Shown here: piece after piece, positions 47,266 to 60,773 of the stretch
How positions within the stretch are numbered: the first letter of the stretch is position 1
Layout of the letters: every line of letters starts with the position of its first letter
Translations under genes and position numbers: made by a program
Notes under the pieces: generated by a model
Databases searched by the model: none
What the model was told of the DNA's origin: nothing
Seen by the model: the letters and a program-made list of their open reading frames with translations, nothing else
DNA from: an uncultured virus (IMG/VR IMGVR_UViG_3300037067_020175)
Lineage: Duplodnaviria; Heunggongvirae; Uroviricota; Caudoviricetes
DNA: 64,000 nt
IMG/VR virus record: IMGVR_UViG_3300037067_020175
Direction: 5' to 3' (one strand)

Positions 47266-47340
47266 TTCTCCCGGTCAGATTTGAACTGACGTTTTCGGGG
47301 TCAAAGCCCAATGTGATTGACCAGACTACACTACGGGAGT
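47266..47340 (-). tRNA. tRNA-Gln(TTG)
   Basis: Cloverleaf; loop CT-TTG-AC; A1.A72 mismatch. Confidence 0.85.
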
Positions 47341-47344
47341 GAAA

Positions 47345-47417
47345 CGTCTCTGGCGCGGCTTGAACGCGCGACTTCACCTTCGCAGGGTGATAGTTTGTCC
47401 ATCTATCCTACAGAGAC
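47345..47417 (-). tRNA. tRNA-Arg(GCG)
   Basis: TCACC CT-GCG-AA GGTGA; archaeal-type anticodon. Confidence 0.9.
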
Positions 47418-47420
47418 ACA

Positions 47421-47509
47421 TGCAGCCGACGAGGATCGAACTCGTTCCTCTTGGTATCTTCCTTTTTCAAGTTGGAAGCCAAGTATGCCACCGTTGACAC
47501 CCCGACTGC
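47421..47509 (-). tRNA. tRNA-Gly(TCC) with 17-nt BHB intron (47456-47472)
   Basis: CTTGG CTTCCA|ACTTGAAAAAGGAAGAT|A CCAAG; strict BHB at 37/38. Confidence 0.9.
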
Positions 47510-47514
47510 TCTAA

Positions 47515-47586
47515 TGAGGTCACCCGGATTTGCACCGAGGTGTAAACGTTCCAAACGTCCACGGATAACTTCTACCTCATGACCCC
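47515..47586 (-). tRNA. tRNA-Pro(TGG)
   Basis: GGACG TT-TGG-AA CGTTT; T-loop TGCAAAT. Confidence 0.85.
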
Positions 47587-47682
47587 TTGTATTACTAAAT
47601 CTCAGTGAGAGAAGTATATAAATCTATGCGGTATAATGTAGGAAAGTAAACGAAAAAGAGAGTTTTTGGGTTATGTCGCGCA

Positions 47683-48345
47683 TCATTTGACGACAATAAA
47701 CCTTCTAATGGTCTTGGTCACACTCCCACCATCGTTTGTGACCATAAGTGATATGTCATATCTCCCGGTTAAAAACACCCGTGTATCTACGGAGGATTCG
47801 CTGAATATTTTCCATCCGGATCCGTCATTATACTTCCACATATAATGAACGATCTCCCCGTTAGTTGTAGGGACAATCGATGTGGATGTTAACTTAACGG
47901 TAAGTGGGGAATACCCATATTGTGGAGAAGCTGTGAATGATACCTTAGGGATGTAATCTGTTCGTATGTATGCAGACTTGACCAAAGAACTCTCTCCACA
48001 ACCGTTGGTAACGTTCAACCGTATATCATACTGACCGGGGTTGAACTTCATCGAAGGGTTTTCTAAAGTAGAGAATTGAATCCACACTCTATCCGATGGA
48101 GCCACATCGTGGCTCCTGAAAGACCATTGGTATTTCAAGTATGTCCCGGTAGAATCGCTTGTAAACTTCACATATAACGGGGAAAACCCAGATGTTGCCG
48201 AAGATGAGAACTCTGATATAGGTTCTACACATACGGCAGGTTGTGTTGGTGGTCTCGAATAGTGGCGAGCTGATGCCGGGAGAATTGCAAATCCGGCGAT
48301 CAATACAAGTGCGATAAGAACCGCAAAAATGTGTTTCCTTTGCAT
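47683..48345 (-). CDS. Secreted double-PKD protein
   Basis: Signal peptide MQRKHIFAVLIALVLIAGFAILPASA; two PKD motif sets. Confidence 0.85.
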   Translation of the reverse strand: MQRKHIFAVLIALVLIAGFAILPASARHYSRPPTQPAVCVEPISEFSSSATSGFSPLYVKFTSDSTGTYLKYQWSFRSHDVAPSDRVWIQFSTLENPSMKFNPGQYDIRLNVTNGCGESSLVKSAYIRTDYIPKVSFTASPQYGYSPLTVKLTSTSIVPTTNGEIVHYMWKYNDGSGWKIFSESSVDTRVFLTGRYDISLMVTNDGGSVTKTIRRFIVVK

Positions 48346-48463
48346 AGTTTATCACCATCATTTCTATTTTCGAATATATATAAACACTTGCATTTTGTCC
48401 AAATGTAGTTTTGGGTATATGCTGGCAAATCTTTAAATATTCACGGAGTCATTATAACATATC

Positions 48464-50401
48464 ATGGCATTGTCAATGGGTGGGAATTTAGGCACTATTC
48501 AGGAAGATATTTATATTTACCAGAATTCTACACATACGATGGCTGAATATAATGGTGCTGTAATATCCACATCGCTCATAAGTCTACTGCGCGACGATGT
48601 GGTATTTGCGGCTGCTTTGGACGCATGCCCGGAGTATGGGATAGTCAAAATCCGTGGGGATTTTACATTCGCGTCTACGGTTACTGGGACGAAATCGGTT
48701 ACAATAATATCCATCGGTGGGTCTATTACGATTCCATCGTCTATGAACCACTACGAGGGATTATATGCAACTCAGGATCACCGCGCGTTTGTTTTTACCG
48801 GAACGACATCTCTCCCTATAGTATTAACATCAAATGCTGACAAGTATGCGACAAGCTTAACCATAGAATCCACCAATGGTCTTACTGGTGGTCAACTTCT
48901 ATACATAGGTGATACGTCATCGTATGACGGTTTCTCTTCGTTTCTGAATGGTGAAATTTGCGAGATAGGGTCTATCACGAGTACAACCGTCTGTGCAATA
49001 AACTCTCCAACTCAGTGTGCATACACTACAGCCAACTCCGCATATGTTATTCCAGCCACCCCAATTTCGGTACATCTCGTAGATATCAAATTTGTCGGGA
49101 CTATTTACAATTCATTTGCTGTAGACTTTGTATATTGCAAAAACAGCTCCGTAAAAGGATGTACATTTGATACCATCACATTTTGTTGTGTGAGAGTTGA
49201 CAACTGCTATAATGTGGATATATCTGGAAATGGATTTTCACATTGTTCTTTTAACTACGGGTATGGGATTGTAATATATAAAGGGTCTAAGTTCGTAGAC
49301 ATCCATCACAATCATTTTTCTCCGATGCTAAACGCAATTACATCCGGTCTTATTTCATACAGTGGCGGATCTCTTCCGGGGATACCAAGTGAAATACGAA
49401 TCTATGAGAATACTATAATTGTTGCCCCGATTTACACGCAGCTTGCATATACCCAATATATATATAATAATGTTATAAAAGGGTCTGCGATTACTGGAGG
49501 TGGATTGGATCTTCTTATCGAGGGGAATACATTCTACAAATGCAATACCGTTTTCGTACCAAATCTCTATATAAGTGGGAAAAAATTGACAATCAGAAAT
49601 AACCGTGTGTTTTTTGATGAAGTATCCGACTGTATTATTTCTGCAACTTCCGGTGGTGCTACGAGAAATTATACGTCAATGGATATAGAGGGTAATGAGT
49701 GTTGGGGTGGAAATATTGCTAAACTATCATCAACACCTATATCCACTCTTGTAATACGGAATAATACTATCAATTCTGTTACTGCAACGAATATTGCAGG
49801 AGCAAATCACGGGATATCAGTGAATGGGGGAGCAACCAACATTTACCCCGACACGTGCGTTGACGGGAACTTTATAACCGGTGTTGGGGGTAACGGAATA
49901 TCCCTTACGAATGTAATTGGAACGTGCCGAAACAATCATATTTACAATCCGGGTAGAATTGGTGCAGGTACTAATTATGGGATATTATTAACACAAACCA
50001 CAACCGGGTTGTGTAATGTCTTATGTGGTGGGAACAGAATTGAGAGTGCGTCATCAGATTTCATGACGTATGGTATTGGGGAAGCTGTTGCTGATGCTTC
50101 TAAGGTTACAAATACTATACCAAATAACTACATATTGAACGCAGTGACATCAAAATATCTCGTCGCTGGTACATATACCGGTGGGATGGAAAAATCTGGT
50201 GTTACGGCAAGCGTCGCGTGGAACGGAACGATTGCTCACGGACTCGGTACAACTCCGAAGTGGGCTATAGTAACGCCATCGACAGCAAGTGAATTTGCTT
50301 CAGTTACTACACTCGATGCAACAAATATCACCGTGTCAGTCAAGAAGCATGATAATACAAATGGAACCACACAGACTCTTTACTGGTCTTGTGGTCTTTA
50401 A
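48464..50401 (+). CDS. Right-handed beta-helix tailspike-like protein
   Basis: Stacked I..N.I repeats; C-terminal IAHGLGTTP. Confidence 0.75.
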   Translation: MALSMGGNLGTIQEDIYIYQNSTHTMAEYNGAVISTSLISLLRDDVVFAAALDACPEYGIVKIRGDFTFASTVTGTKSVTIISIGGSITIPSSMNHYEGLYATQDHRAFVFTGTTSLPIVLTSNADKYATSLTIESTNGLTGGQLLYIGDTSSYDGFSSFLNGEICEIGSITSTTVCAINSPTQCAYTTANSAYVIPATPISVHLVDIKFVGTIYNSFAVDFVYCKNSSVKGCTFDTITFCCVRVDNCYNVDISGNGFSHCSFNYGYGIVIYKGSKFVDIHHNHFSPMLNAITSGLISYSGGSLPGIPSEIRIYENTIIVAPIYTQLAYTQYIYNNVIKGSAITGGGLDLLIEGNTFYKCNTVFVPNLYISGKKLTIRNNRVFFDEVSDCIISATSGGATRNYTSMDIEGNECWGGNIAKLSSTPISTLVIRNNTINSVTATNIAGANHGISVNGGATNIYPDTCVDGNFITGVGGNGISLTNVIGTCRNNHIYNPGRIGAGTNYGILLTQTTTGLCNVLCGGNRIESASSDFMTYGIGEAVADASKVTNTIPNNYILNAVTSKYLVAGTYTGGMEKSGVTASVAWNGTIAHGLGTTPKWAIVTPSTASEFASVTTLDATNITVSVKKHDNTNGTTQTLYWSCGL

Positions 50402-50413
50402 AAACTATTTTTA

Positions 50414-50489
50414 TGGGACTGGTGCGATTTGAACGCACATCAACGCGGTTTTGGAGACCGGCACTCTTATCCAGTTAAGCTACAGCCCC
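50414..50489 (-). tRNA. tRNA-Trp(CCA), intronless, C27.C43 mismatch
   Basis: CCGGT CT-CCA-AA ACCGC; G1 is the last base of the pth2 TAG. Confidence 0.9.
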
Positions 50490-50866
50490 TACAAAAGTTT
50501 AAGGTCTTTCGTAAGTGACGTAAGGTCGTCGAGAGCCGCGCTGCCTTCCGCAAGTGGTTCAAAACCGACAGCCGTTGTTGTTCCCGGTTCGATCTGTGTG
50601 AGACCGGCATCTACAACGATTGCACTGTTAACACCAAAGGAATGTGCCTTCTGTGTGATTTTAACCATAGTCTGGAGATCAGGGACTTTCAGGACAATCT
50701 TACGCATCCCATACTTACGCCACATCTTTGAGATGTATTCTACTCCAACATCTGCACCCATAATTGCAGCGTGAGCTACTTGCACGCATTTCTTGCCGCA
50801 ATCTATCCCAAGATCGGATCGTATGAGGATTACCTGTTTGTATTCCCTGATTTCAGATGGTTTCAT
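50489..50866 (-). CDS. pth2: Peptidyl-tRNA hydrolase Pth2
   Basis: KQVILIRSDL...GK...QVAHAA...KIVLK...VDAGLTQIEPGTTT...LKLL. Confidence 0.92.
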   Translation of the reverse strand: MKPSEIREYKQVILIRSDLGIDCGKKCVQVAHAAIMGADVGVEYISKMWRKYGMRKIVLKVPDLQTMVKITQKAHSFGVNSAIVVDAGLTQIEPGTTTAVGFEPLAEGSAALDDLTSLTKDLKLL

Positions 50867-52035
50867 TATGTATACCTCTTGATTGCGACTATTCCACCGA
50901 ATGCAGTCTCTAATATATTCCCGCTTTCGGTGTTTGTCGCGATTATCTCTACTTTTGTATCAGTTTTAGAGTATCTCGACACTTTGTCGCGATAATTGTC
51001 TACATAGGTGTTTCGATTAGAAGATATTAATACTATCGCGACACTTCCATGTTCAATCGATTCTGAAATTGTATCGATACCGTATATAGCTTTTCCAGTG
51101 TCTCTCGCAAGTTCTTTGAGGAATTCGTCGAACAGTTCTTTCTGGTGTTCCGATTCGATATCGGATATCTTACCTTTAGCCGCGCGCACAAGTTCCTGTA
51201 ATCCCGATTCGTTGGTGTAACATGTGTCGAATACACCGACGATTTTCTTCCGTAGTTCGTGGTTAAGGTAGTCTCCGCGCGCGAATTCGTCTTTGGTCAT
51301 TCCACATCCGCCTATGATGATACCTTTCAGATTTGTTCCATATTGAACAAATGTGTTGCTTGCGCGTTCACCGAGGTTCGTAAAGAACCCGTGGATTGCG
51401 ATATCCCGTAACCGTTCGAACCGTTGCGCGGATTGTCCACCCTGACTATGCTTATTTGGGACGAGAGAGTCGTATGTTCCTGAAAGACGCACAGATGCGC
51501 CTTTGAGTATTCCCCACGCAGACTCGTGCAGGTCGAGAACGATGAGACCGTATGTGTCTCCAGTATCGATTAAGTCTTCAGCATCAGATGTCGCAAATTG
51601 TGAATCGCACCGATACAGGAAAGATTTGACCGGTGATGGTGGATTGAGAAGATGATACTCGAATTCAGTGCGGTCTCCGCGCGTTATAACCTCTCCGCAG
51701 AATGCAATCAGACCGTTGTCCGGTATAATCCCAATCTGTGAGAATCTGGATATAAGTGCGTTCAGTGCGTGCTGGACGCTGGTTCTTGTCTGTTTACTCT
51801 TGATGTTGCCAGTTCCTGCAATCTCGTTCCGTAGACGGTTTGCAACATCAGAAATGCGTTTTGATCCCGGAACGTAGAGGGATATAAGTTCAGTGCCGTT
51901 CCCACGTTTCTCTTTTAAGGAAGAGATCTCACTTTTGAAAATATTTCAATTTCCGTCTTCTGTCGGTTTGATATTTCCTTCACGATCTCCTATAAGATTC
52001 TTTTCTCCTTTGAGATTTCTATCGTGTTCATCCAT
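50866..52035 (-). CDS. prf1: Archaeal peptide chain release factor 1 (aRF1) with one in-frame TGA at 51948-51946
   Basis: 1170 nt in frame from ATG 52035; GTELISLY, NIKS, YRCDS, KHSQGGQSAQRF, FGGIVA; the ORF track captures only the 3' 208 aa. Confidence 0.88.
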
Positions 52036-52070
52036 AATCATTAGTGTGTGATTGTAGTATATAAATATAA

Positions 52071-52146
52071 CGCGCACGGGGAGATTTGAACTCCCGGCAT
52101 CAGAATTAGAAGTTCTGCCTATTAGTCCAAGCTATAGTACGTGCGC
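52071..52146 (-). tRNA. tRNA-Arg(TCT)
   Basis: CAGAA CT-TCT-AA TTCTG. Confidence 0.9.
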
Positions 52147-52150
52147 TCAA

Positions 52151-52221
52151 TGCACCCAGACGGTAACGCTCCGTCGCATCTCGGATGTAAACCGAGTATT
52201 CTACTTTTAAATTACGGGTGC
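52151..52221 (-). tRNA. tRNA-Val(TAC)
   Basis: CTCGG TT-TAC-AT CCGAG; atypical T-loop AGCGTTA. Confidence 0.8.
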
Positions 52222-52225
52222 TCAA

Positions 52226-52299
52226 TGGGTGCGAGGCGATTCGAACACCTACCCCCCGGATCAAAAGTCCAGTGCTCTTCCATTTGGAGCTACGCACCC
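52226..52299 (-). tRNA. tRNA-Lys(TTT)
   Basis: CTGGA CT-TTT-GA TCCGG. Confidence 0.9.
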
Positions 52300-52302
52300 G
52301 TA

Positions 52303-52378
52303 TCTGCTGGGAGAGACTTGAACTCTCGATGAATAATAGGTCTACAGCCCATCGCAATCGCCGCTATGCCACCAGCAG
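52303..52378 (-). tRNA. tRNA-Tyr(GTA)
   Basis: ATGGG CT-GTA-GA CCTAT; C1:G72/A73, no long variable arm (archaeal type). Confidence 0.9.
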
Positions 52379-52540
52379 TCTGTGGTTATTTGTTTCTTAT
52401 CAACTGCACGAGGATGTTAATTGCACATTCGTGTTCATGCTCTCCCCACCATTCACACCGGGTTTCGCTGTCATATGGGTATCCATGATTACACTTTGAT
52501 CTTTTATATAATGGACATAGACCTTCGCCATGCATGTTGA

Positions 52541-53266
52541 CTACTTCCTGTTTGTTGGCTCAAGCCATAATTCCCCGGTTCCAAATACTGCGTATTGGAT
52601 TTTTGGGAATTCGGATAGTATATCTAATGTTTGAATTGTTGAGTATTTAAACATTTTTAACAATTCGTCTTTTTTTCTGTCCATAGATATGTTGGTTCTT
52701 AACAGTTCGACGTATCTGTCGTCGTCAAGTAGTCTCTGGATCGTCGGGTCGATCTGCATTCCCTTCATAACAGAAAATCGAAGCGCGCGGATCATACGTA
52801 AAGCATCTTCAGCAAATCTTTCGCGGGGATCTCCAACGCATCTAAGATATCTGGCTCCAATATCAGCAATCCCGTGGAATGGATCTATATATGTGAGTCC
52901 TTCTGTACACGGGTATATTTGCATGGCTATTGCGTTTACGGTAAAGTCTCTCCGTGCGAGGTCGTCATAGATTGTCCCGTGATATACCACATCTGGTCTT
53001 CGTCCGTCGGTGTATGCACCTTCGCGCCTACAGAGAACAAAGTCAGCATCTCCTGTGAATCCTTCGAGATTGTTTAGTCGTGCCCGTATGGTGAGATATT
53101 CTGGCTTTTCGAGATAGATCTTCCCGTGTCTCTTGATGAAATCTCGCATTGCCTCGTAGCTTGATGCTTCTACAGAGAAATCGATGTCTTTATTTTTAAC
53201 TCCGAGGAACTGATCGCGCACAGCACCACCAACCATATATATACCTGTAACGGACATTTTGACCAA
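52541..53266 (-). CDS. Class II (bacterial-type) tRNA nucleotidyltransferase / CCA-adding enzyme, short form
   Basis: VGGAVRD...KDIDF, DLARRDFTVNA, RFAEDALRMIRALRF. Confidence 0.88.
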   Translation of the reverse strand: MVKMSVTGIYMVGGAVRDQFLGVKNKDIDFSVEASSYEAMRDFIKRHGKIYLEKPEYLTIRARLNNLEGFTGDADFVLCRREGAYTDGRRPDVVYHGTIYDDLARRDFTVNAIAMQIYPCTEGLTYIDPFHGIADIGARYLRCVGDPRERFAEDALRMIRALRFSVMKGMQIDPTIQRLLDDDRYVELLRTNISMDRKKDELLKMFKYSTIQTLDILSEFPKIQYAVFGTGELWLEPTNRK

Positions 53267-53321
53267 CTTATACTTACTTGATGGGAAACATTAATATATC
53301 TTTGTATTTAATACTCTCACA

Positions 53322-54329
53322 TTGGAGAGTTCTATGTATTTTACACCAGAAGGGCTATATGGGAATAATGTAAGTCTTACGTATTTCAGAATGGAGGGTC
53401 AGAGGACAGACGGATACAGTTCGCCGGGAGCTGATATGGAATGTATGGTCACATTCAATGCCGGGGAGTCCGGGTGCAACATTACAACCGGGTTCTGCAA
53501 CCCCGGCGCGCAGATTGCTTGGTATGTGAATGGTGTCCTGAAACAAGATACTGTCTGGTCTGGGTATAATGGTGGTCTCGGAGGATATATCGCAACATTT
53601 CGTGTAATCGCGCCTCAGTCCGGGACAATGACGGTCACTGCGGTAAGTGCAAACACGGTAACGTTTACAATACAAGTTCTTGACGATTTTCAGGATGCCG
53701 GGATCGTATCCGTATCCAACGTTTACTGTGGGAACAGTCCATATAATAATGCAAGTTGTGACGGGTCAAATCTCATAATTTACTTTTATAGAACTCCCGT
53801 AGAAACCGGGAATGGTGTCGCATACGTCGATATTTATATGGACGGTGTTCTAAAAGTGGGGAAAGTTCCAACATCATCATCTGTCGCTGGATACGATAGT
53901 CACACAATATCGTGTCCATCGGATAACGTCTCACACACGATTCTTGTAAAAGGTAAGAACGACTCTGGAGCATCTGTTGTTCTCCCATCTGGTGGAAATC
54001 CATGTCTCACAAACCCTTGTGGAGCCGGATGCCCAGACCAGTATAAATGCGGCGTGTGTGTAAACTGTGGAAATATATGTCAGGAAGATCACTGTGCAGA
54101 AGGATGCACCGACTATTACCTGTGCGGTCAGTGTGGAAATCCACCATGTGGGACATGTACAGATCCTCCATGTGGGGTTGGGTGTCCGGATTATGGCACA
54201 TCGATTTGTGGAGGTAGTGTAAGCAGTGATATCTTCACTCAGATAACAAGATTTATTACAGAGCACCCTGCGGAATCTGCGGTTGCAGGTGTGATAGCCC
54301 TAATGCTGATAATTCCTTCGAAAAAGTAG
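53322..54329 (+). CDS. Ig-like + Cys-rich C-terminally anchored protein
   Basis: CLTNPCGAGCP...; EHPAESAVAGVIALMLIIPSKK (similar to 24156-24755). Confidence 0.75.
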   Translation: MESSMYFTPEGLYGNNVSLTYFRMEGQRTDGYSSPGADMECMVTFNAGESGCNITTGFCNPGAQIAWYVNGVLKQDTVWSGYNGGLGGYIATFRVIAPQSGTMTVTAVSANTVTFTIQVLDDFQDAGIVSVSNVYCGNSPYNNASCDGSNLIIYFYRTPVETGNGVAYVDIYMDGVLKVGKVPTSSSVAGYDSHTISCPSDNVSHTILVKGKNDSGASVVLPSGGNPCLTNPCGAGCPDQYKCGVCVNCGNICQEDHCAEGCTDYYLCGQCGNPPCGTCTDPPCGVGCPDYGTSICGGSVSSDIFTQITRFITEHPAESAVAGVIALMLIIPSKK

Positions 54330-54570
54330 AAAACGCAGTAAGTGGTATACTCGCCGGGTCGAGTTCTCCCGGCAAAATATACCGAATTAATTCCTGATAT
54401 CTTCTTTTTCTCACAATTTTGGGTTCGTTCTTAGGATCGCAGCACCACGGGCAGTCTCTTCCGGGGTGGTTAATCTGCTTATATGGGTGGTGATAAATGC
54501 CACAAACGTGGCGGGTTATTCTCAAGACTTTCGGATCGTTATAGATTCTCCGTGTGTCTGACATAATCAT
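54256..54570 (-). CDS. Hypothetical protein
   Basis: 104-aa ORF with CPWCCD; 3' overlap with the convergent gene. Confidence 0.35.
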   Translation of the reverse strand: MIMSDTRRIYNDPKVLRITRHVCGIYHHPYKQINHPGRDCPWCCDPKNEPKIVRKRRYQELIRYILPGELDPASIPLTAFSTFSKELSALGLSHLQPQIPQGAL

Positions 54571-54618
54571 GTATTTGTTTTATAAAGATTTTAAACTTCC
54601 GTGTTGTCTGACATACGT

Positions 54619-54800
54619 CTTACGGGGTACTTAGGGGGTACTTACGGGGTACTTACCGGGTCTCCGGCGTGAGCTTACTGGGTATGCTTACTGGGTAGGT
54701 AGGCAGCTTACTGGGTATTTACTCGCGAATTACTAAAAAATAAGCGAATAAATATTTATTAACTCGCATATTACTCAAAAATAAGCGAGTAAATAATTTA
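54619..54800. repeat. Iteron-like tandem repeats and two imperfect palindromes in an intergenic region
   Basis: CTTA(C/G)GGGGTA-type units x4, GCTTACTGGGTA x3, then two copies of ACTCGC..ATTACT.AAAAATAAGCGA.TAAATA. Confidence 0.8.
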
Positions 54801-54835
54801 GGAATGTTTAAATAGTCGTATTACTATCGTAATGT

Positions 54836-55045
54836 ATGGCTGAACATTGTTTATGTTATAATACTGGAACCACAAATATCCAGAGTGCGTCGTTTGAAGA
54901 AGCGGCTGTATTAGATAGTGGTGTCGCTGGAATCGCAGTGTTATCTATATATTTACTCGCCGGTGCATTTTTGGTCGGACTTGGTTTTGCGTATGGATCT
55001 AATACAGCAAATTGCTTACCCACATGTGGGAAGAGATACGGGTAA
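54836..55045 (+). CDS. Small membrane protein
   Basis: TATA box at 54808; TM segment. Confidence 0.55.
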
Positions 55046-55414
55046 CCGGTACTTGTGGAATCCTATACCATTTCTTGATTTTAATATACCAGCACAAGTT
55101 TTATTACAACAGAACTCTGTGATGCCTTTTCCGATTTGACGATTATAGTGACTACTTGTTATAGGAAAGATCGTCTCACAAATATGACAAGATATCATTC
55201 TCGTAGGTAATTTTGGGTGATGAAAGGAAGCATGTGGTTTTTTGGAAGTTATCTCTAAATTTTCTATACGATTGTCTGTTTTTATACCATTTATATGATG
55301 TACTTCTTCATTTGGATGTAACTTTCTACCAAGATATGACTCCATCACTATACGATGTTCGAGAACTGTTTCTCCATCAGATGTTACTCTCGGATATGGA
55401 TTATTTCTATCCAT
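55016..55414 (-). CDS. HNH homing endonuclease
   Basis: [12 protein letters not shown]...[16 protein letters not shown]...H. Confidence 0.88.
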
Positions 55415-55445
55415 GTATATATTTTTATATCTAATTCTATTTAAA

Positions 55446-55519
55446 TGCTCCCGATGGGATTCGAACCCATGCCGAAAGGTTGAAAGCCTCTCATCGCTTG
55501 ACCGCTAGACTACGGGAGC
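55446..55519 (-). tRNA. tRNA-Glu(TTC)
   Basis: AGAGG CT-TTC-AA CCTTT. Confidence 0.9.
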
Positions 55520-55522
55520 CAA

Positions 55523-55593
55523 TTCTCGTAGGGTGAATCGAACACCCGTCTCGCCCTTATAAGGAGCGCCCACTGCCATTGTGGTATACGAGA
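55523..55593 (-). tRNA. tRNA-Ile(TAT)
   Basis: CGCTC CT-TAT-AA GGGCG; acceptor TCTCGTA/TACGAGA. Confidence 0.85.
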
Positions 55594-55595
55594 GA

Positions 55596-55667
55596 TGCGA
55601 CTACCGGAACTTGCATCCGATCTTCCTGCATGGCAAGCAGGTATCATACTACATCGATCATAGTCGC
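55596..55667 (-). tRNA. tRNA-Gly(GCC)
   Basis: CCTGC TT-GCC-AT GCAGG. Confidence 0.8.
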
Positions 55668-55670
55668 TCA

Positions 55671-55742
55671 TTCGCCCACGAGGATTCGAACCTCGGTAAC
55701 GGCTGTATCAGAACCGGAGACTAACCACTGTCCTATAGGCGA
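55671..55742 (-). tRNA. tRNA-Ile(GAT)
   Basis: CGGTT CT-GAT-AC AGCCG. Confidence 0.85.
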
Positions 55743-55745
55743 TCA

Positions 55746-55816
55746 TACACCCAGACGGTATCGCGCCGTCTTCTCCTGAATGTCAATCAGGTATTCTACT
55801 TTTGAATTATGGGTGT
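55746..55816 (-). tRNA. tRNA-Val(GAC)
   Basis: CCTGA TT-GAC-AT TCAGG; T-loop CGCGATA. Confidence 0.8.
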
Positions 55817-55820
55817 TCAG

Positions 55821-56054
55821 AGGGCTCGGTGGGGATCGAACCCACTACTTCCAGTTTTCCGGAGTGTAATCGCACGACATACGAGACTGGAGGCAGGACT
55901 TTACTGCATTTACCCACACTTTATTTTCCGTTATTGTCTCGAATCAGGGGAGTTTCAAGGTTCCCTGAGCCACATGCAGGTGGTTTTGAGATCACTCGTA
56001 TGCCGCGCGATTACCTTTACAGGACTGGCGCAGTTCCATTACTGCTCCGAACCC
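55821..56054 (-). ncRNA. tRNA-like RNA (possibly tRNA-Thr(TGT)) with a 161-nt structured insert in the anticodon loop (55857-56017)
   Basis: Acceptor GGGTTCG/CGAGCCC+U73, D stem GCAG/CTGC, anticodon stem CCAGT/ACTGG, T-loop TTCGAT; insert closed by a 20-bp helix. Confidence 0.75.
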
Positions 56055-56088
56055 TTAAATTCTCGTTGCTGGCTTAATTTCCAGCTCA

Positions 56089-56163
56089 TGCACCCGTTCG
56101 GACTCGAACCGAAACAGTTAACCGGTCTTCAGCCGGTCGCGCTCCCAATTGTGCCACGGGTGC
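56089..56163 (-). tRNA. tRNA-Phe(GAA)
   Basis: ACCGG CT-GAA-GA CCGGT. Confidence 0.9.
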
Positions 56164-56325
56164 GGTTAAAATTTCCTCATTATTGGAAGGTTAATTCCCG
56201 AATTCTTCTTCGGTGAAAAAAGTTCGGGTGCCTTCACTAAACGTTTCCCACGTCTCGCGACCTGTTATAATAACACCCGATAATGTCATACTTACCTGTT
56301 GATTCTGAATATATTTAAAGGTTTG

Positions 56326-57636
56326 TTATTCTCCTTGCGATTCCTCGATGTCTACAGACTCCGGGTCGAGCTTGATTATATCTTCCAAAACTTTGAACTG
56401 GAAACTCTTGTACTTCCAGACCTGCCACTTTGAACCATCCGCGCGCACGACAACTCCCTCTCTGATATGCTTGTCGCAGAGTGTGGAATCTCCATTCACA
56501 TGGTGGTCGTCGAGGTAGTGCAGGAGTTGTGTTGCGTTTGCGTTCTCTCCTTCTCCGGTGCCAAGTCTGAACAGGGTTCTACCGAGCTCAGGGACGTGCT
56601 TAACATCCATCTCCGCGCACCGGTGCTTCACCATGTCCCATGAGTAGTCTACTTCGTCTCCTTCATCGTTGGTGATGGTCATGCGGTAGACATAGACATC
56701 GTGGACACCCTGACCGCAACCATACGTGAAGTGAGTGGTCTTCCCATACTTCTTCACGAATTCCTTGTCCTGAAGCTTGGTGTTGTCAGCCGAAGGCATG
56801 ATGGGAGTGTGCTCAGCCGCGTATCCTACCACTTCGTAGTATACTGTTTCTCCCTTGCGGAGTTTGCCGACAAACCGGTTGTGCGCGCATTCCCGGTATT
56901 TCTCGTTGTCTCCGTAGAATCCACGGTAAGTTGCGAAATCCTTGATCACAACCCGGCGTGTGCCACCGACATACTTGTAGTTTCTGACCGGATTGATTAT
57001 GGTTCTTTTCAGGAGTCCGTTGATAATGCGTCCATACCACGCGTGCTTCTCTTCAATAGAGTTGCTGGTGCGCTGAGATGTTCCATGAACCTTCTCGGTT
57101 ATGATCAGGAACATTCCGTCCTTGAGTTCATCGAGACGGTATGCAAGCTGCTGAGTATCGGGCATCTCGTAGAACATTGGGAACTTGATCTTTTCTACGA
57201 ATTCTTTCTTCTGTGAGCGCGCATTCTGCGTCTTTGTATTCACGAACTTCTCACAGATCTTGTGACCGTTGAACTCTGTGAATGCAAGTCCGATTTCGAG
57301 TTTGTAGATGTCTATTCCCGTATATGACACACTTTCGAGTGAACAGAAGTATCCATCGCTCTTTTCCTTGCGGATTTTCTGCGTGCGTACTTTTCCATTT
57401 GGGTCGAAAAGTCCTCCTATGTTCTTACCGTCTACTACATTGCGCACGAGGTTGTTTACCCGCAGGTATTCCTCCGATAGTCTGCCATCGGCTGGAAAGT
57501 AAATTCCCACATCGTTCTCTTTGACATCGAGACCGACTACGACTTGGTTTCCGAAGCACTCACCAAGTAAAAGGCTGTGTGCGTCCGGGTGCTTTCTCAC
57601 GTTTGTGATTCTTGTTACAAATGCTGTGTATGCCAA
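56326..57636 (-). CDS. RNA ligase, DRB0094/Rnl2-like family with N-terminal OB-like domain
   Basis: ITEKVHGTS (motif I), VYYE, REGVVVR, WKYKS; N-term KHPDAHSL..GIYFPADG. Confidence 0.85.
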   Translation of the reverse strand: MAYTAFVTRITNVRKHPDAHSLLLGECFGNQVVVGLDVKENDVGIYFPADGRLSEEYLRVNNLVRNVVDGKNIGGLFDPNGKVRTQKIRKEKSDGYFCSLESVSYTGIDIYKLEIGLAFTEFNGHKICEKFVNTKTQNARSQKKEFVEKIKFPMFYEMPDTQQLAYRLDELKDGMFLIITEKVHGTSQRTSNSIEEKHAWYGRIINGLLKRTIINPVRNYKYVGGTRRVVIKDFATYRGFYGDNEKYRECAHNRFVGKLRKGETVYYEVVGYAAEHTPIMPSADNTKLQDKEFVKKYGKTTHFTYGCGQGVHDVYVYRMTITNDEGDEVDYSWDMVKHRCAEMDVKHVPELGRTLFRLGTGEGENANATQLLHYLDDHHVNGDSTLCDKHIREGVVVRADGSKWQVWKYKSFQFKVLEDIIKLDPESVDIEESQGE

Positions 57637-57656
57637 CGATTTTCACCTCGTTTGGA

Positions 57657-57727
57657 CGGGCTCAACGGGGATCGAACCCGCGAGAAGGGATTAAGAGTCC
57701 CTCATGTTACCTCTACATCATGAACCC
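57657..57727 (-). tRNA. tRNA-Lys(CTT)
   Basis: AGGGA CT-CTT-AA TCCCT. Confidence 0.9.
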
Positions 57728-57730
57728 TGA

Positions 57731-57802
57731 TACGACTACCGGGAGTTGCACCCGGACTCAAAGGCTGAGAACCTCTGTTCCTTACTGTTAGATTATAGTC
57801 GC
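57731..57802 (-). tRNA. tRNA-Glu(CTC)
   Basis: AGAGG TT-CTC-AG CCTTT. Confidence 0.85.
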
Positions 57803-57813
57803 GCATTTTTCTA

Positions 57814-57886
57814 CAGGCGCGCCGGGAGTTGCACCCGGATCGTTTGGTTCGAAGCCGAACAGGATTATCTGCTACCCCACGCACCT
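57814..57886 (-). tRNA. tRNA-Arg(TCG)
   Basis: TTCGG CT-TCG-AA CCAAA. Confidence 0.85.
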
Positions 57887-57894
57887 ACTTTGTT

Positions 57895-58102
57895 ATTATG
57901 ACGGAAGTTTTTGTACAAGTCCGTTCGTTTCCCTCCCGCGCGGGTGACTAGCCCTCCGCGTTCCACGGGAACACCGATGTGGGGTAATGAGCCCCGGTTG
58001 GCTTCACACTCAGACCTTTTCTTTCCGGGTAGCGACGAGTTGCACGCGCGCCACCAACCTACCGCGAATCGACATCGATACTACAGGTTTCGAACCCTGT
58101 AA
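57895..58102 (-). ncRNA. Unassigned structured RNA within the tRNA operon
   Basis: GC-rich; stems TACAGG/CCTGTA, TATCGATGT/ACATCGGTG, GGTTGG/CCAACC, GGTGGCG/CGCTACC. Confidence 0.5.
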
Positions 58103-58103
58103 A

Positions 58104-58177
58104 TGGACAGAGCGGGATTTGAACCCGCAGCCGCCGATTTGCAAAACCGGAAATCTGCCAATTGGATCTATCTGCCC
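58104..58177 (-). tRNA. tRNA-Ala(TGC)
   Basis: CCGGT TT-TGC-AA ATCGG; G3.U70. Confidence 0.9.
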
Positions 58178-58199
58178 AATATTAACGCGCCGAAGCGCA

Positions 58200-58271
58200 C
58201 GGACACACCGGGTACTGCCCCCGGATCTGCTGAGTGACAGTCAGCCATACTTACTTCTATACTATGCGTCC
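58200..58271 (-). tRNA. tRNA-Asp(GTC)
   Basis: GCTGA CT-GTC-AC TCAGC; G73. Confidence 0.85.
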
Positions 58272-58275
58272 AAAG

Positions 58276-58349
58276 GGTATCAGGTGGGATTCGCACCCAT
58301 CTCTGCGAGATTCACAGTCTCGTGTGCTGCTGACTACACTACCGACACC
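58276..58349 (-). tRNA. tRNA-His(GTG) with encoded G-1
   Basis: CGAGA CT-GTG-AA TCTCG; G-1:C73. Confidence 0.88.
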
Positions 58350-58350
58350 A

Positions 58351-58603
58351 CTGGTAGTGGGGATAAAGTCTCCCGCGCGCATCTTCTCCCCAGCACACGC
58401 GCGGTGTTATCGACTTGTGGTAGTCATGACTTTACTCTATAACCACGTTAGACACTCCCACTACGCTTACACGCGGGAGAACGGGAACACCTCTTGCGTA
58501 GGAATTGCCATTGCACGTCCGTTTATCTTGATGACGGTGACAGGAACGGATAAGGCACCGGGGATTTATGGCGTACCAGACCTCTCACAGATGTAAGGCT
58601 GTG
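58351..58603 (-). ncRNA. Second unassigned structured RNA within the tRNA operon
   Basis: Stems CTGGTA/TACCAG, GCCAT/ATGGC, TCCGTT/AACGGA, TCTCCCGCGTGT/GCGCGCGGGAGA; possible pseudoknot TAAAGTC/GACTTTA. Confidence 0.5.
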
Positions 58604-58605
58604 GA

Positions 58606-58678
58606 TAGTTCCCGGAAGATTCGAACTTCCGTCGCGAGATCCAGAGTCTCGAATGCTTGACCACTACACTAGGGAACT
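58606..58678 (-). tRNA. tRNA-Gln(CTG)
   Basis: CGAGA CT-CTG-GA TCTCG; A1:U72 (archaeal type). Confidence 0.9.
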
Positions 58679-58693
58679 TCTTATAGCGCAGGA

Positions 58694-58764
58694 TTCCGGG
58701 AAACGGGGTTGCGCCGCTTCTTTAAGCTTATGAGGCTTGCATGCTGCTGTTACATCATCCCGGA
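58694..58764 (-). tRNA. tRNA-Met/Ile2(CAT)
   Basis: CAAGC CT-CAT-AA GCTTA; first gene after a TATA-like box near 58795. Confidence 0.8.
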
Positions 58765-58804: not shown

Positions 58805-59344
58805 TTACTTTTTTCGGTTTGTGTTCTTACCTTTGTATGTGTCTGTAAATGTATGGCAATTTGGACATAACAATTCCAAATTTTCGTCGGTGTTATTTGC
58901 AGTATCCCCATCTTTATGGTGACGTTCTAACGGGATTTTCTCTCCAAGCCAAGTTGTTCCATGACACCGTTCGCATTTGTGACCGCGCGTGAGAATCAAA
59001 TAAGTCTTGGTTGCACTTATACCCGGATTCTTCCCATTGCGTATTGTATCGGATACTAAATATATAGATTTACACTTTGGAGAACAGAATGTTTTTCTTT
59101 CACATCTGGCACCACATTGTTTGCAGAATTTTCTTTTATATCCGCGAGATATGTCATTAAAATTTTTAGAACACCTGTGTGAGCAAAATTCATTCTTGCG
59201 TTTGTCGTAAGAGAGTGGGGTTTTGCAATGTTTACATAGTTTTGGATTTAGATTATACTTCTTTATACGTTCCATCATTTGCAACTTGTGAGTTATAATC
59301 GAGTTTTCGTTTCCAAGCTTCTGCCCTTCTTTAGTCCATACCAT
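58805..59344 (-). CDS. HNH endonuclease with Cys-rich N-terminal modules
   Basis: CERC...LERHHKDGDTANNTDENLELLCPNCH. Confidence 0.88.
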   Translation of the reverse strand: MVWTKEGQKLGNENSIITHKLQMMERIKKYNLNPKLCKHCKTPLSYDKRKNEFCSHRCSKNFNDISRGYKRKFCKQCGARCERKTFCSPKCKSIYLVSDTIRNGKNPGISATKTYLILTRGHKCERCHGTTWLGEKIPLERHHKDGDTANNTDENLELLCPNCHTFTDTYKGKNTNRKK

Positions 59345-59918: not shown

Positions 59919-60773
59919 TTGAAGAAACGTATTTTTGTTGTCACCGATATCCACGGACGTTTGAGTGCTCTTAATGAAGTTCTCGATGCGGCTGGCTTTG
60001 ATAATTCGCGGGACTGGCTAATCACGCTTGGAGACGAATGTGACGGTGGAAGTAAAACAAAAGAAGTTATAGACCGCATCCTCGAAGTAGAGAACCGTAT
60101 AGACGTGCAGGGCAACCACGATTACTACTGGTTCCGTCCGTGGGCAATGTGGGATCGTGATGGTGGGGAGTTCCGACCACCGGAAACTGCTCACTGGGAG
60201 ACGCAAGGTGGTATCTGGACTGAGAAGTCATATGGCTTCAACCCTCACAACGTTCCGCAGGAACACAAGGACTATCTGAATGCGAAGATTCCCTATTACA
60301 TCGATAAAAAGAAGAATGCGTTTGTACATGGCGGGTTCAGGCAGAATGTTGCATTATCCAAACAGGAACCGAAATCCATCGCATGGGACAGGAAACTCCT
60401 GAAATATGCGCAAAATAGTCGTGTGCGCGGTTACAATTACGTGTTCGTGGGTCACACGTCAACTCAGTTCCACAAAAAGAAATCCGTGCATATAACCGAT
60501 GAGGGACAGGAATATGTTGCATACACTCCATGCACAGAGCCGGTCAAGTTCAACAACCTGATAATGTGCGACTGTGGGGCTGGATACACCGGTAGGCTAG
60601 CTCTGGTTAACGTAGAACATCCCGGAGAATACTGGTTATCGCAGTTTCAGGTGCCTAATTACGAACCGGAAGAGGTTGAACGTTATCGCATAGATGATGA
60701 TGGGTCTGACGACACCGAAGAGTTCGTGTGGGGAACAGGGTTCAAAGATAAGTTCGTTGACAGAATGGCTTGA
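59919..60773 (+). CDS. PPP/ApaH-like metallophosphoesterase
   Basis: DIHG, LGDECDGG, GNHD, FVHGG, GHT, DCGAG. Confidence 0.88.
   Translation: MKKRIFVVTDIHGRLSALNEVLDAAGFDNSRDWLITLGDECDGGSKTKEVIDRILEVENRIDVQGNHDYYWFRPWAMWDRDGGEFRPPETAHWETQGGIWTEKSYGFNPHNVPQEHKDYLNAKIPYYIDKKKNAFVHGGFRQNVALSKQEPKSIAWDRKLLKYAQNSRVRGYNYVFVGHTSTQFHKKKSVHITDEGQEYVAYTPCTEPVKFNNLIMCDCGAGYTGRLALVNVEHPGEYWLSQFQVPNYEPEEVERYRIDDDGSDDTEEFVWGTGFKDKFVDRMA

Follow-up and report, generated by a model that had tools for sequence, protein, structure and literature searches.

Introduction

Introns of archaeal tRNA genes are removed at a motif termed bulge-helix-bulge (BHB), in which a 4-bp helix that includes the first two anticodon bases is flanked on either side by a 3-nt bulge holding a splice site (PMC4090602). 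The 2014 review that describes this geometry gives the lengths of archaeal tRNA introns as 11-129 nt, and lengths of 31-103 nt are listed elsewhere (PMC7714728). Once excised, archaeal tRNA introns exist as circles, and that of tRNA-Trp is stable (PMC3326292); the box C/D RNA contained in tRNA-Trp introns is named as the one case of a functional intron (PMC4090602). The archaeal virus HGTV-1 carries an intron in one of its tRNA genes (PMC13532342) and encodes RNA ligases, a CCA-adding enzyme, and the ligase RtcB (PMC8651126). The literature collection that we searched contained no paper on a virus-encoded archaeal aRF1 or on long viral tRNA introns. Here we describe a tRNA gene with a 161-nt insert in its anticodon loop, found in a 64,000-nt stretch of DNA from an uncultured virus (IMG/VR record IMGVR_UViG_3300037067_020175); this whole stretch is referred to below as the window.

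The locus is likely to be a tRNA-Thr(UGU) gene with an exceptionally long archaeal-type BHB intron at position 37/38, spliced by the host and carried within the polycistronic tRNA array of a virus-like element. It belongs to a known kind of feature, the archaeal BHB tRNA intron, of which it is an unusually long member and a fairly ordinary one. We favor this reading because the cloverleaf, the unpaired bulges, and a 20-bp helix match the geometry given in PMC4090602, and because the computed product is called as a threonine tRNA, the gene lies in register in an array, introns occur in a tRNA-Gly(UCC) gene of the same window and in tRNA genes of a distant contig, and HGTV-1 provides a viral precedent. 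An unusually long BHB intron was one of two options raised in the original prediction, made from the DNA sequence without database searches, and it has gained from the structure, the array register, and the second intron-bearing tRNA, a support that comes from structure and context.

A probable tRNA-Thr(UGU) gene with a structured insert

The gene spans 56054..55821 on the minus strand (234 nt) and has a full cloverleaf. Its acceptor stem, GGGUUCG/CGAGCCC, includes one U.G pair; positions 8 and 9 are G and A, the D stem is GCAG/CUGC with a D loop containing GG, the anticodon stem is CCAGU/ACUGG, the variable loop is AAGUA, and the T arm (GUGGG-UUCGAUC-CCCAC) is followed by the discriminator U73. 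The insert lies between the loop bases CCUGUA, which end at position 37, and A38. It starts and ends with the 20-bp helix, made of 18 Watson-Crick and 2 G.U pairs, and this helix encloses the hairpins CCAC/GUGG and UCAGGG/CCCUGA together with an A-rich, mostly unpaired stretch (Table 1). The stems, the hairpins, the 20-bp helix, and the A-rich strand that the original prediction had listed were all found on the minus strand where it had placed them, in the sequence and by RNAfold.

RNAfold returned the cloverleaf and the long helix for the 234-nt RNA with a minimum free energy (MFE) of -86.7 kcal/mol (z = -5.18; 0 of 200 shuffles folded as well), and the intron folded alone reached -53.7 kcal/mol (z = -4.01). 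The reverse strand of the region folds as well (z = -5.29), as hairpins would. Because the opposite strand folds equally well, the strand was called from the T loop, the cloverleaf, and the register of the minus-strand array, and not from energy.

The splice junctions were examined in the partition function, where the six bulge bases (RNA positions 36-38 and 197-199) are unpaired with probabilities of 0.88-1.0; they are unpaired in the MFE structure too. The 3' bulge abuts the anticodon stem, and behind the 5' bulge come the pairs AG/CU, a 1-nt bulge, and then the 20-bp helix. The outer helix (h) of the motif is the 5-bp anticodon stem, paired at 0.6-0.68, and the inner helix (h') is formed by AG/CU and the 20 bp, paired at 0.86-1.0. 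The only cut that restores a 7-nt loop with the bulge geometry is the one yielding CCUGUAA, and it sets the position at 37/38. As modeled, the junction is BHB-like at the canonical site and is not a strict hBHBh' motif. The most likely role of the 20-bp helix is to keep the otherwise weak BHB in shape, as an inner helix of great stability.

When the predicted exons are joined in silico, the product is 73 nt long, and ARAGORN with the default threshold identifies it as tRNA-Thr(tgt), in agreement with the Thr(UGU) product with U73, G8, and C33 that had been foreseen. Among 15 comparators the product is closest to a Thermoplasmatota tRNA-Thr(UGU), with 74% identity, an identical T arm, and U73 in both.

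The tRNA array and codon use

ARAGORN reported 17 tRNAs in the window and Rfam 22 to 23; their union is 23, and the tRNA-Thr gene makes 24. All are encoded on the minus strand and form five clusters, spread from 47266 to 58764. The cluster to which the tRNA-Thr gene belongs reads Glu, Ile(UAU), Gly(GCC), Ile(GAU), Val(GAC), Thr, and Phe, with spacers of 3-4 nt. ARAGORN and Rfam found no other threonine tRNA in the window, and tRNAs for Ser, Leu, Asn, and Cys are absent too. ACA is the commonest threonine codon in the 59 window open reading frames (ORFs) that were counted, accounting for 536 of 1366 (39%). The position of this gene as the only threonine tRNA gene of the window, together with the rank of ACA among threonine codons, argues that it is a working gene. 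No tRNA gene in the window encodes its CCA end.

A second intron in the array has the canonical form. The tRNA-Gly(UCC) gene carries 17 nt at 37/38 in a canonical hBHBh' motif: the central helix, CUUC/GAAG, has 4 bp, both bulges are 3 nt long, and there is a hairpin, CUU-GAAA-AAG. Introns also occur on L043, a distant aRF1-bearing IMG/VR contig of 61 kb whose aRF1 is 28% identical to that of the window. Default ARAGORN finds 22 tRNAs at 6825-9609 of L043, including an intronless tRNA-Thr(UGU), and the intron mode of the program finds two more, a tRNA-Leu(UAA) carrying a 43-nt intron and a tRNA-Ala(UGC) carrying one of 18 nt, which in the MFE structure forms an exact hBHBh'.

The two intron-bearing tRNAs of the window share a departure from the universal U8-A14 pair. 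Both have G8, and U8 is present in all 22 other tRNAs. Both also lack A14 (U14 in Thr and C14 in Gly), and in each the base at position 14 is complementary to base 21, which makes the D stem extendable to 5 bp or more.

A separate peculiarity of the array concerns the T loop, which in 9 of the 24 tRNAs does not start with UUC (T-Psi-C); examples are UGCAACU, CGCGAUA, and GGCAGUA, and several of these tRNAs also lack the GG of the D loop. The nine genes, all on the minus strand, lie at 58694-58764, 58276-58348, 58200-58271, 57814-57886, 57731-57802, 55746-55816, 55596-55667, 52151-52221, and 47515-47586, and five of them were missed by ARAGORN. The element therefore carries two structural classes of tRNA side by side. 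Two gaps in the array on the same strand, 57887-58103 (217 nt) and 58349-58605 (257 nt), hold no gene call and have a short hairpin right after the preceding tRNA. When these gaps were checked for disrupted tRNAs or a shared RNA, neither a significant fold (z = 0.09 and -1.21) nor a convincing mutual alignment was found.

A proposed splicing pathway

If the gene is a host-spliced tRNA-Thr(UGU) gene, its maturation may proceed as follows. A transcript of the minus-strand array would be divided by cuts in its spacers of 3-4 nt, releasing the individual pre-tRNAs, and CCA would be added by the CCA-adding enzyme that the element itself encodes. Host EndA would then cut within both 3-nt bulges, after A37 and before A38, and the exons would be joined by host RtcB or possibly, after healing of the ends, by the RNA ligase of the element. 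The released intron would probably be circularized, like other archaeal tRNA introns, and the mature tRNA would read ACA.

Copies and relatives elsewhere

DNA contigs from public sequencing runs of five studies hold parts of the region. Run X3 is identical over the part that it covers. A contig of run X5 (151 nt) matches 55789-55939, including the neighboring tRNA-Val, with two differences; one of these, at 55872, replaces a G-C pair in the long helix by G.U. A contig of run X9 (270 nt) matches 55901-56056 with one change; its loose end, read by eye, extends the match to 55877, for 180 nt in total and two differences in all, one of them the change at 55888 that is also present in X5. Beyond 56056, which is 2 nt past the 5' end of the tRNA, X9 continues into unrelated sequence. 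Because its upstream flank differs, the intron-bearing allele circulates in more than one genomic context. Alignment of DNA contigs from X3, X4, X5, and X9 to the region revealed no exon joints and no intron-less allele, with X4 not spanning 55724-55993.

More distant relatives were sought in several collections. Scans of IMG/VR with the RNA ligase protein, the helix 20-mer, the aRF1 protein, and a junction pattern with a variable gap gave nothing related, and a scan with a 21-mer from the T arm and acceptor gave only two unrelated tRNA-Lys loci of bacterial phages. The gapped junction pattern had no match in genome contigs. An alignment of the RNA ligase led to 39 metagenome loci, one of which is identical (L003) and ends before the tRNA-Thr gene; the other 22 metagenome ligase loci that were scanned contained no tRNA. 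When the 234 nt were compared by BLAST with 401 Thermoplasmatota genomes, 14 of these had a match, of 32 nt at most. Twelve matches fall in the 3' portion of the gene and one falls in the 5' exon; the remaining one, 24 nt inside the intron with an E value of about 0.009, we take as chance. The whole intron was present in none of the 401 genomes.

Observations that weigh against a host-spliced intron

Several observations count against the reading favored here. The first is size, as 161 nt exceeds the 11-129 nt range of the review (PMC4090602). The second is the weakness of the central helix. A 37/38 BHB with a U.C mismatch had been proposed at the outset, and its site and bulges stand; the four-position register itself (C32-G, C33-G, U34.C, G35-C) has a probability of about 0.12, as opposed to about 0.5 for a 3-bp register shifted by one (C33-G, U34.G, G35-C), which leaves internal loops of 1x3 and 3x1. 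The alpha2-type endonuclease of Haloferax is reported to require hBHBh' strictly (PMC7714728). EndA consists of two tandem domains in one frame in two of the five Thermoplasmatota genomes that were searched. We take this tandem-domain form to be the same stricter two-domain type as the Haloferax enzyme, and cleavage of the junction by such a host EndA is therefore uncertain. As to the identity of the host, the closest cellular relatives of the window aRF1 are from Thermoplasmata and Methanomassiliicoccales, at 35-45% identity, and this similarity is a weak hint of a Thermoplasmatota host.

Other points concern the gene and its record. At positions 8 and 33, where U is nearly universal, the predicted mature tRNA would have G8 and C33. 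As for ARAGORN and Rfam, which had been proposed as checks, default ARAGORN and Rfam, at gathering score or at E ≤ 10, do not report the gene, and the intron mode of ARAGORN does so only below its default threshold. Moreover, no RNA run was found among the public sequencing runs that contain the sequence, and the searches described above recovered no diverged homologue of the intron-bearing gene.

Alternative explanations

One alternative keeps the splicing and gives the excised RNA a purpose. The 161-nt intron would be retained for its own sake as a stable, probably circular RNA of use to the element during infection, for example as a regulator, decoy, or sponge, which we consider unlikely. 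The intron is far longer than a BHB requires, and on its own it folds better than shuffled sequences. Copies from other studies differ at two positions each despite the different upstream flank of X9, and one of the changes keeps the helix paired. There is also precedent in the circularity of excised archaeal tRNA introns and in the long tRNA-Trp intron, which is stable and functional (PMC3326292, PMC4090602). Other results count against it. Rfam at E ≤ 10 over 55780-56100 returned only noise, with no match to a small nucleolar RNA and none to a group I intron, a type that bacterial and phage tRNA genes can carry in the anticodon loop. In box C/D RNAs a C box (RUGAUGA) and a D box (CUGA) form a kink-turn, and the guide is complementary to the tRNA. 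By eye, the intron showed neither a C/D nor an H/ACA design; its best C-like word, GUGAUCU, matches at 5 of 7 positions, and no terminal D box lies near the helix. No repeat of the intron and no significant complementarity to it (at least 13 nt) was found elsewhere in the window beyond chance, and its ORFs are of 12 codons or fewer. The copies are 98-99% identical, so selection on the intron is not separable from recent common descent. The runs containing the sequence include no RNA run, and the array of L043 has an intronless tRNA-Thr(UGU).

A more specific form of this idea, which we regard as rather improbable, takes the oversized intron as a product. Host EndA and RtcB would convert it into a stable 161-nt circle, a rod of 20-24 bp with exposed loops that might act as a decoy or sponge; alternatively, the supply of tRNA-Thr(UGU) would be made conditional on the splicing capacity of the host. 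Either version of a retained intron, if true, would make this the first functional RNA from a tRNA intron to be encoded by a virus of archaea.

A quite improbable explanation is that the tRNA gene is disabled, with a short mobile or hairpin insert bounded by 20-bp terminal inverted repeats sitting in its anticodon loop, so that the gene is neither spliced nor used and G8 and C33 are signs of decay. The insert is indeed bounded at the DNA level by an inverted repeat matching at 18 of 20 positions, G8 and C33 depart from universal tRNA positions, the BHB is imperfect, and default detectors miss the gene. However, all four stems are intact, and the two mismatches of the repeat at the DNA level become G.U pairs in RNA of the tRNA sense. 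The site of the insert is exactly 37/38, neither of the two bulges is missing, and the 64 kb contain no second copy of the repeat. G8 and an altered base 14 complementary to base 21 recur in tRNA-Gly(UCC), which looks like shared design and not decay. Furthermore, this is the only threonine tRNA for an element whose top threonine codon is ACA, and the gene is kept in the runs of other studies.

It is very unlikely that the splice sites lie elsewhere and the product is a tRNA-His(GUG) with a 159-nt intron at 36/37. ARAGORN -i gives this call at ps80 and ps60, with a loop CUGUGAA in which U33 is restored, but in this fold the D stem has to be separated from the anticodon stem by two nucleotides, the stem has to end in a C.A mismatch, and both cuts fall outside the bulges. 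Also, G is absent at position -1 and the discriminator is U73, whereas the tRNA-His of the window itself (58276-58348) encodes G-1 and C73. Unlike this product, the 37/38 product is called at the default ARAGORN threshold, as tRNA-Thr.

The second option of the original prediction, an unspliced RNA resembling transfer-messenger RNA (tmRNA) that would rescue ribosomes together with aRF1 and Pth2, is almost certainly wrong: its superficial architecture, the presence of both genes 4-5 kb away, and a forced ARAGORN -m call at ps60 speak for it, but the forced call ends in 'Tag not identified', ARAGORN at default settings reports no tmRNA, the only match to the Rfam tmRNA model is a 17-nt T arm scoring 7.4 bits against a gathering score of 84, and the RNA has a complete anticodon stem and BHB, a G-C instead of a G.U pair at 3:70, and no reading frame that could plausibly encode a tag. 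The charging of tmRNA is defined by G3.U70, the alanine identity pair; its tRNA-like domain has no anticodon arm, and its tag-peptide frame includes a resume codon.

Table 1. Positions of the tRNA-Thr(UGU) gene parts, neighboring tRNAs, and other genes in the 64,000-nt window.
Feature	Position	Strand	Basis
5' exon, tRNA positions 1-37 (acceptor 5' strand, G8 A9, D arm, anticodon-stem 5' strand, loop C32 C33 U34 G35 U36 A37)	56018..56054	-	sequence, fold, computed exon split
Predicted 161-nt intron at canonical 37/38	55857..56017	-	sequence, fold
3' exon, tRNA positions 38-73 (A38, anticodon-stem 3' strand, AAGUA, T arm, acceptor 3' strand, U73)	55821..55856	-	sequence, fold
5' BHB bulge (U36 and A37 with the first base of the intron); 5' splice site predicted to follow A37	56017..56019	-	unpaired 0.92-0.99
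3' BHB bulge (last two intron bases A, A, and A38); predicted 3' splice site before A38	55856..55858	-	unpaired 0.88-1.0
Central helix, 5' strand (C32 C33 U34 G35)	56020..56023	-	pairs with 55859-55862
Central helix, 3' strand (CCGG near intron 3' end)	55859..55862	-	ensemble
20-bp intron helix, 5' arm	55995..56014	-	pair probabilities 0.86-1.0
20-bp intron helix, 3' arm	55866..55885	-	ensemble pairing
Two internal hairpins (CCAC/GUGG, UCAGGG/CCCUGA)	55944..55983	-	MFE and centroid structures
A-rich, largely unpaired intron stretch	55919..55936	-	high unpaired probabilities
tRNA-Val(GAC), downstream neighbor, 4-nt spacer to the tRNA-Thr gene	55746..55816	-	Rfam, 55 bits
tRNA-Phe(GAA), upstream neighbor	56089..56163	-	ARAGORN, Rfam
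tRNA-Gly(UCC) with 17-nt intron at 37/38, canonical hBHBh'	47421..47509	-	ARAGORN intron mode at default threshold; Rfam, 37.1 bits; fold
Class II CCA-adding enzyme (PolyA_pol head domain)	52541..53266	-	protein searches
RNA ligase (PF09414, PHROG 968), upstream of the Phe-Thr cluster, adjoining the array	56326..57636	-	family matches
HNH endonuclease flanking the tRNA clusters	55016-55414	-	protein searches
HNH endonuclease flanking the tRNA clusters	58805-59344	-	protein searches
Metallophosphoesterase of lambda-phosphatase type	59919-60773	+	protein searches

The surrounding element

The original prediction had assumed a cellular archaeal context, and here the evidence points elsewhere: judged from its genes, the window looks like part of a large virus or virus-like mobile element of an archaeon. 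The appearance of a large archaeal virus comes from the genes for an RNA ligase and a CCA-adding enzyme and from those for aRF1 and Pth2. Among the window proteins neither a capsid protein nor a terminase was recognized, and the term virus therefore rests on phage-like replication and accessory genes. Other proteins include a primase-polymerase (a weak Pfam match below the gathering threshold), a phage-like helicase, a ParB-methylase, and PKD and beta-helix proteins. One beta-helix protein is a 380-aa protein that had first been guessed to be a capsid protein. No assignment was obtained for a 532-aa protein, and neither aRF1 nor the 380-aa protein had a match in a collection of phages and archaeal viruses.

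The aRF1 gene, with NIKS and GGQ motifs, and the Pth2 gene, of archaeal/eukaryotic type, are both real, as the prediction had it. The role in ribosome rescue that was suggested for them has no specific link to the tRNA-Thr RNA; the two genes sit among other translation genes and tRNAs, and nothing ties them to this RNA in particular.

Some enzymes of the element bear on tRNA maturation. The class II CCA-adding enzyme is of the bacterial, eukaryotic, and phage type, in contrast with the archaeal markers found otherwise in the element. The RNA ligase is a candidate viral enzyme for tRNA repair or joining, going by its family matches. It has thousands of homologues, some relatives are named tRNA-binding EMAP/Myf-like, and no PDB relative was found by sequence or profile. 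The RNA ligase and the metallophosphoesterase could form a viral set for healing and sealing tRNAs, and no kinase was recognized. The two HNH endonuclease genes may relate to the shuffling of tRNA modules that is hinted at by the different upstream flank of X9.

An additional observation concerns the aRF1 gene itself (50866-52041, minus strand), in which an in-frame TGA occurs at 51946-51948, 31 codons after an upstream ATG. The position before the first aligned aRF1 residue is Trp in three full-length homologues of the viral clade (P0121, P0122, and P0132). The residues upstream of that point (TEDGN) resemble those of the same three proteins, and the 359 downstream codons are intact and include NIKS and GGQ. 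TGA is otherwise an ordinary stop codon in the window, where 59 ORFs end with 38 TAA, 12 TGA, and 9 TAG, and no tRNA(UCA) is present. The TGA may have arisen very recently by mutation from TGG, it may be an error of the assembly, or it may be read through in a programmed way by which the supply of the release factor regulates itself, as with bacterial prfB. A tRNA-Trp(CCA) gene lies at 50414-50489, just downstream of the aRF1-Pth2 pair. For at least 12 of 29 aRF1 homologues of the viral clade (P0126, P0129, P0135, P0136, and P0140-P0147) the protein call begins only at an internal Met or Leu beyond the NIKS region. Contigs of 57-220 kb carry several of the shortened homologues, and the N-terminal domains of these proteins may also be interrupted or missing.

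Implications

The locus illustrates an annotation gap, as long-intron tRNAs in viral arrays are missed by default ARAGORN and by Rfam. Without the intron call, the element seems to have no threonine tRNA although ACA is its top threonine codon. The introns of tRNA-Thr, tRNA-Gly(UCC), and the L043 tRNAs suggest that archaeal viruses with large tRNA arrays repeatedly carry BHB introns of the host type, and the supply of viral tRNAs would therefore be tied to the EndA and RtcB machinery of the host. At a length beyond the reviewed range, the tRNA-Thr intron is also a natural test substrate for the intron length and the central-helix imperfection that archaeal endonucleases tolerate. The surrounding element, with its 24 tRNAs, aRF1, Pth2, CCA-adding enzyme, and RNA ligase, is probably of more interest than the intron itself, and the in-frame TGA of aRF1 may likewise deserve more attention than the intron.

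Comparison with known systems

The bacterial SsrA tmRNA resembles the RNA described here in that a long helix, with a structured insert inside it, is attached to the acceptor and T arms. The resemblance ends there, as the viral RNA has an intact anticodon stem and D arm and lacks the G3.U70 pair, a tag frame, the series of pseudoknots, and a match to the tmRNA model. Metazoan tRNA intronic circular RNAs (tricRNAs) provide another parallel, being introns that are excised at a BHB-like motif with a stabilizing helix and ligated into stable circles (PMC4536317). These RNAs are eukaryotic, and for the viral intron circularization is something that we infer. The processing stems of archaeal pre-16S and pre-23S rRNA likewise place a long helix beside a BHB, and the part excised is circularized (PMC3326292, PMC7714728); here, the excised part is 161 nt, and its flanks are the exons of a tRNA.

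HGTV-1, a large virus of archaea, is like the window in its many tRNA genes, one of them with an intron, and in encoding RNA ligases and a CCA-adding enzyme (PMC13532342; PMC8651126). Searches with aRF1 and the 380-aa protein found no sequence relationship between the two, and the window differs in having at least two intron-bearing tRNAs and in encoding aRF1 and Pth2. In comparison with the tRNA-Trp intron of archaea, the tRNA-Thr intron contains no recognizable box C/D RNA.

The nearest relatives in kind are the canonical archaeal BHB introns, such as those of Haloferax volcanii tRNA-Trp (103 nt) and tRNA-Met (75 nt). Like them, the intron described here lies at 37/38 with two 3-nt bulges, bases 34-35 are part of the central helix, the intron supplies the inner helix, and the computed spliced tRNA is of standard length. 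What sets it apart is its 161 nt, the mismatched central helix, the 20-bp inner helix, and its place in a virus-like element instead of a cell.

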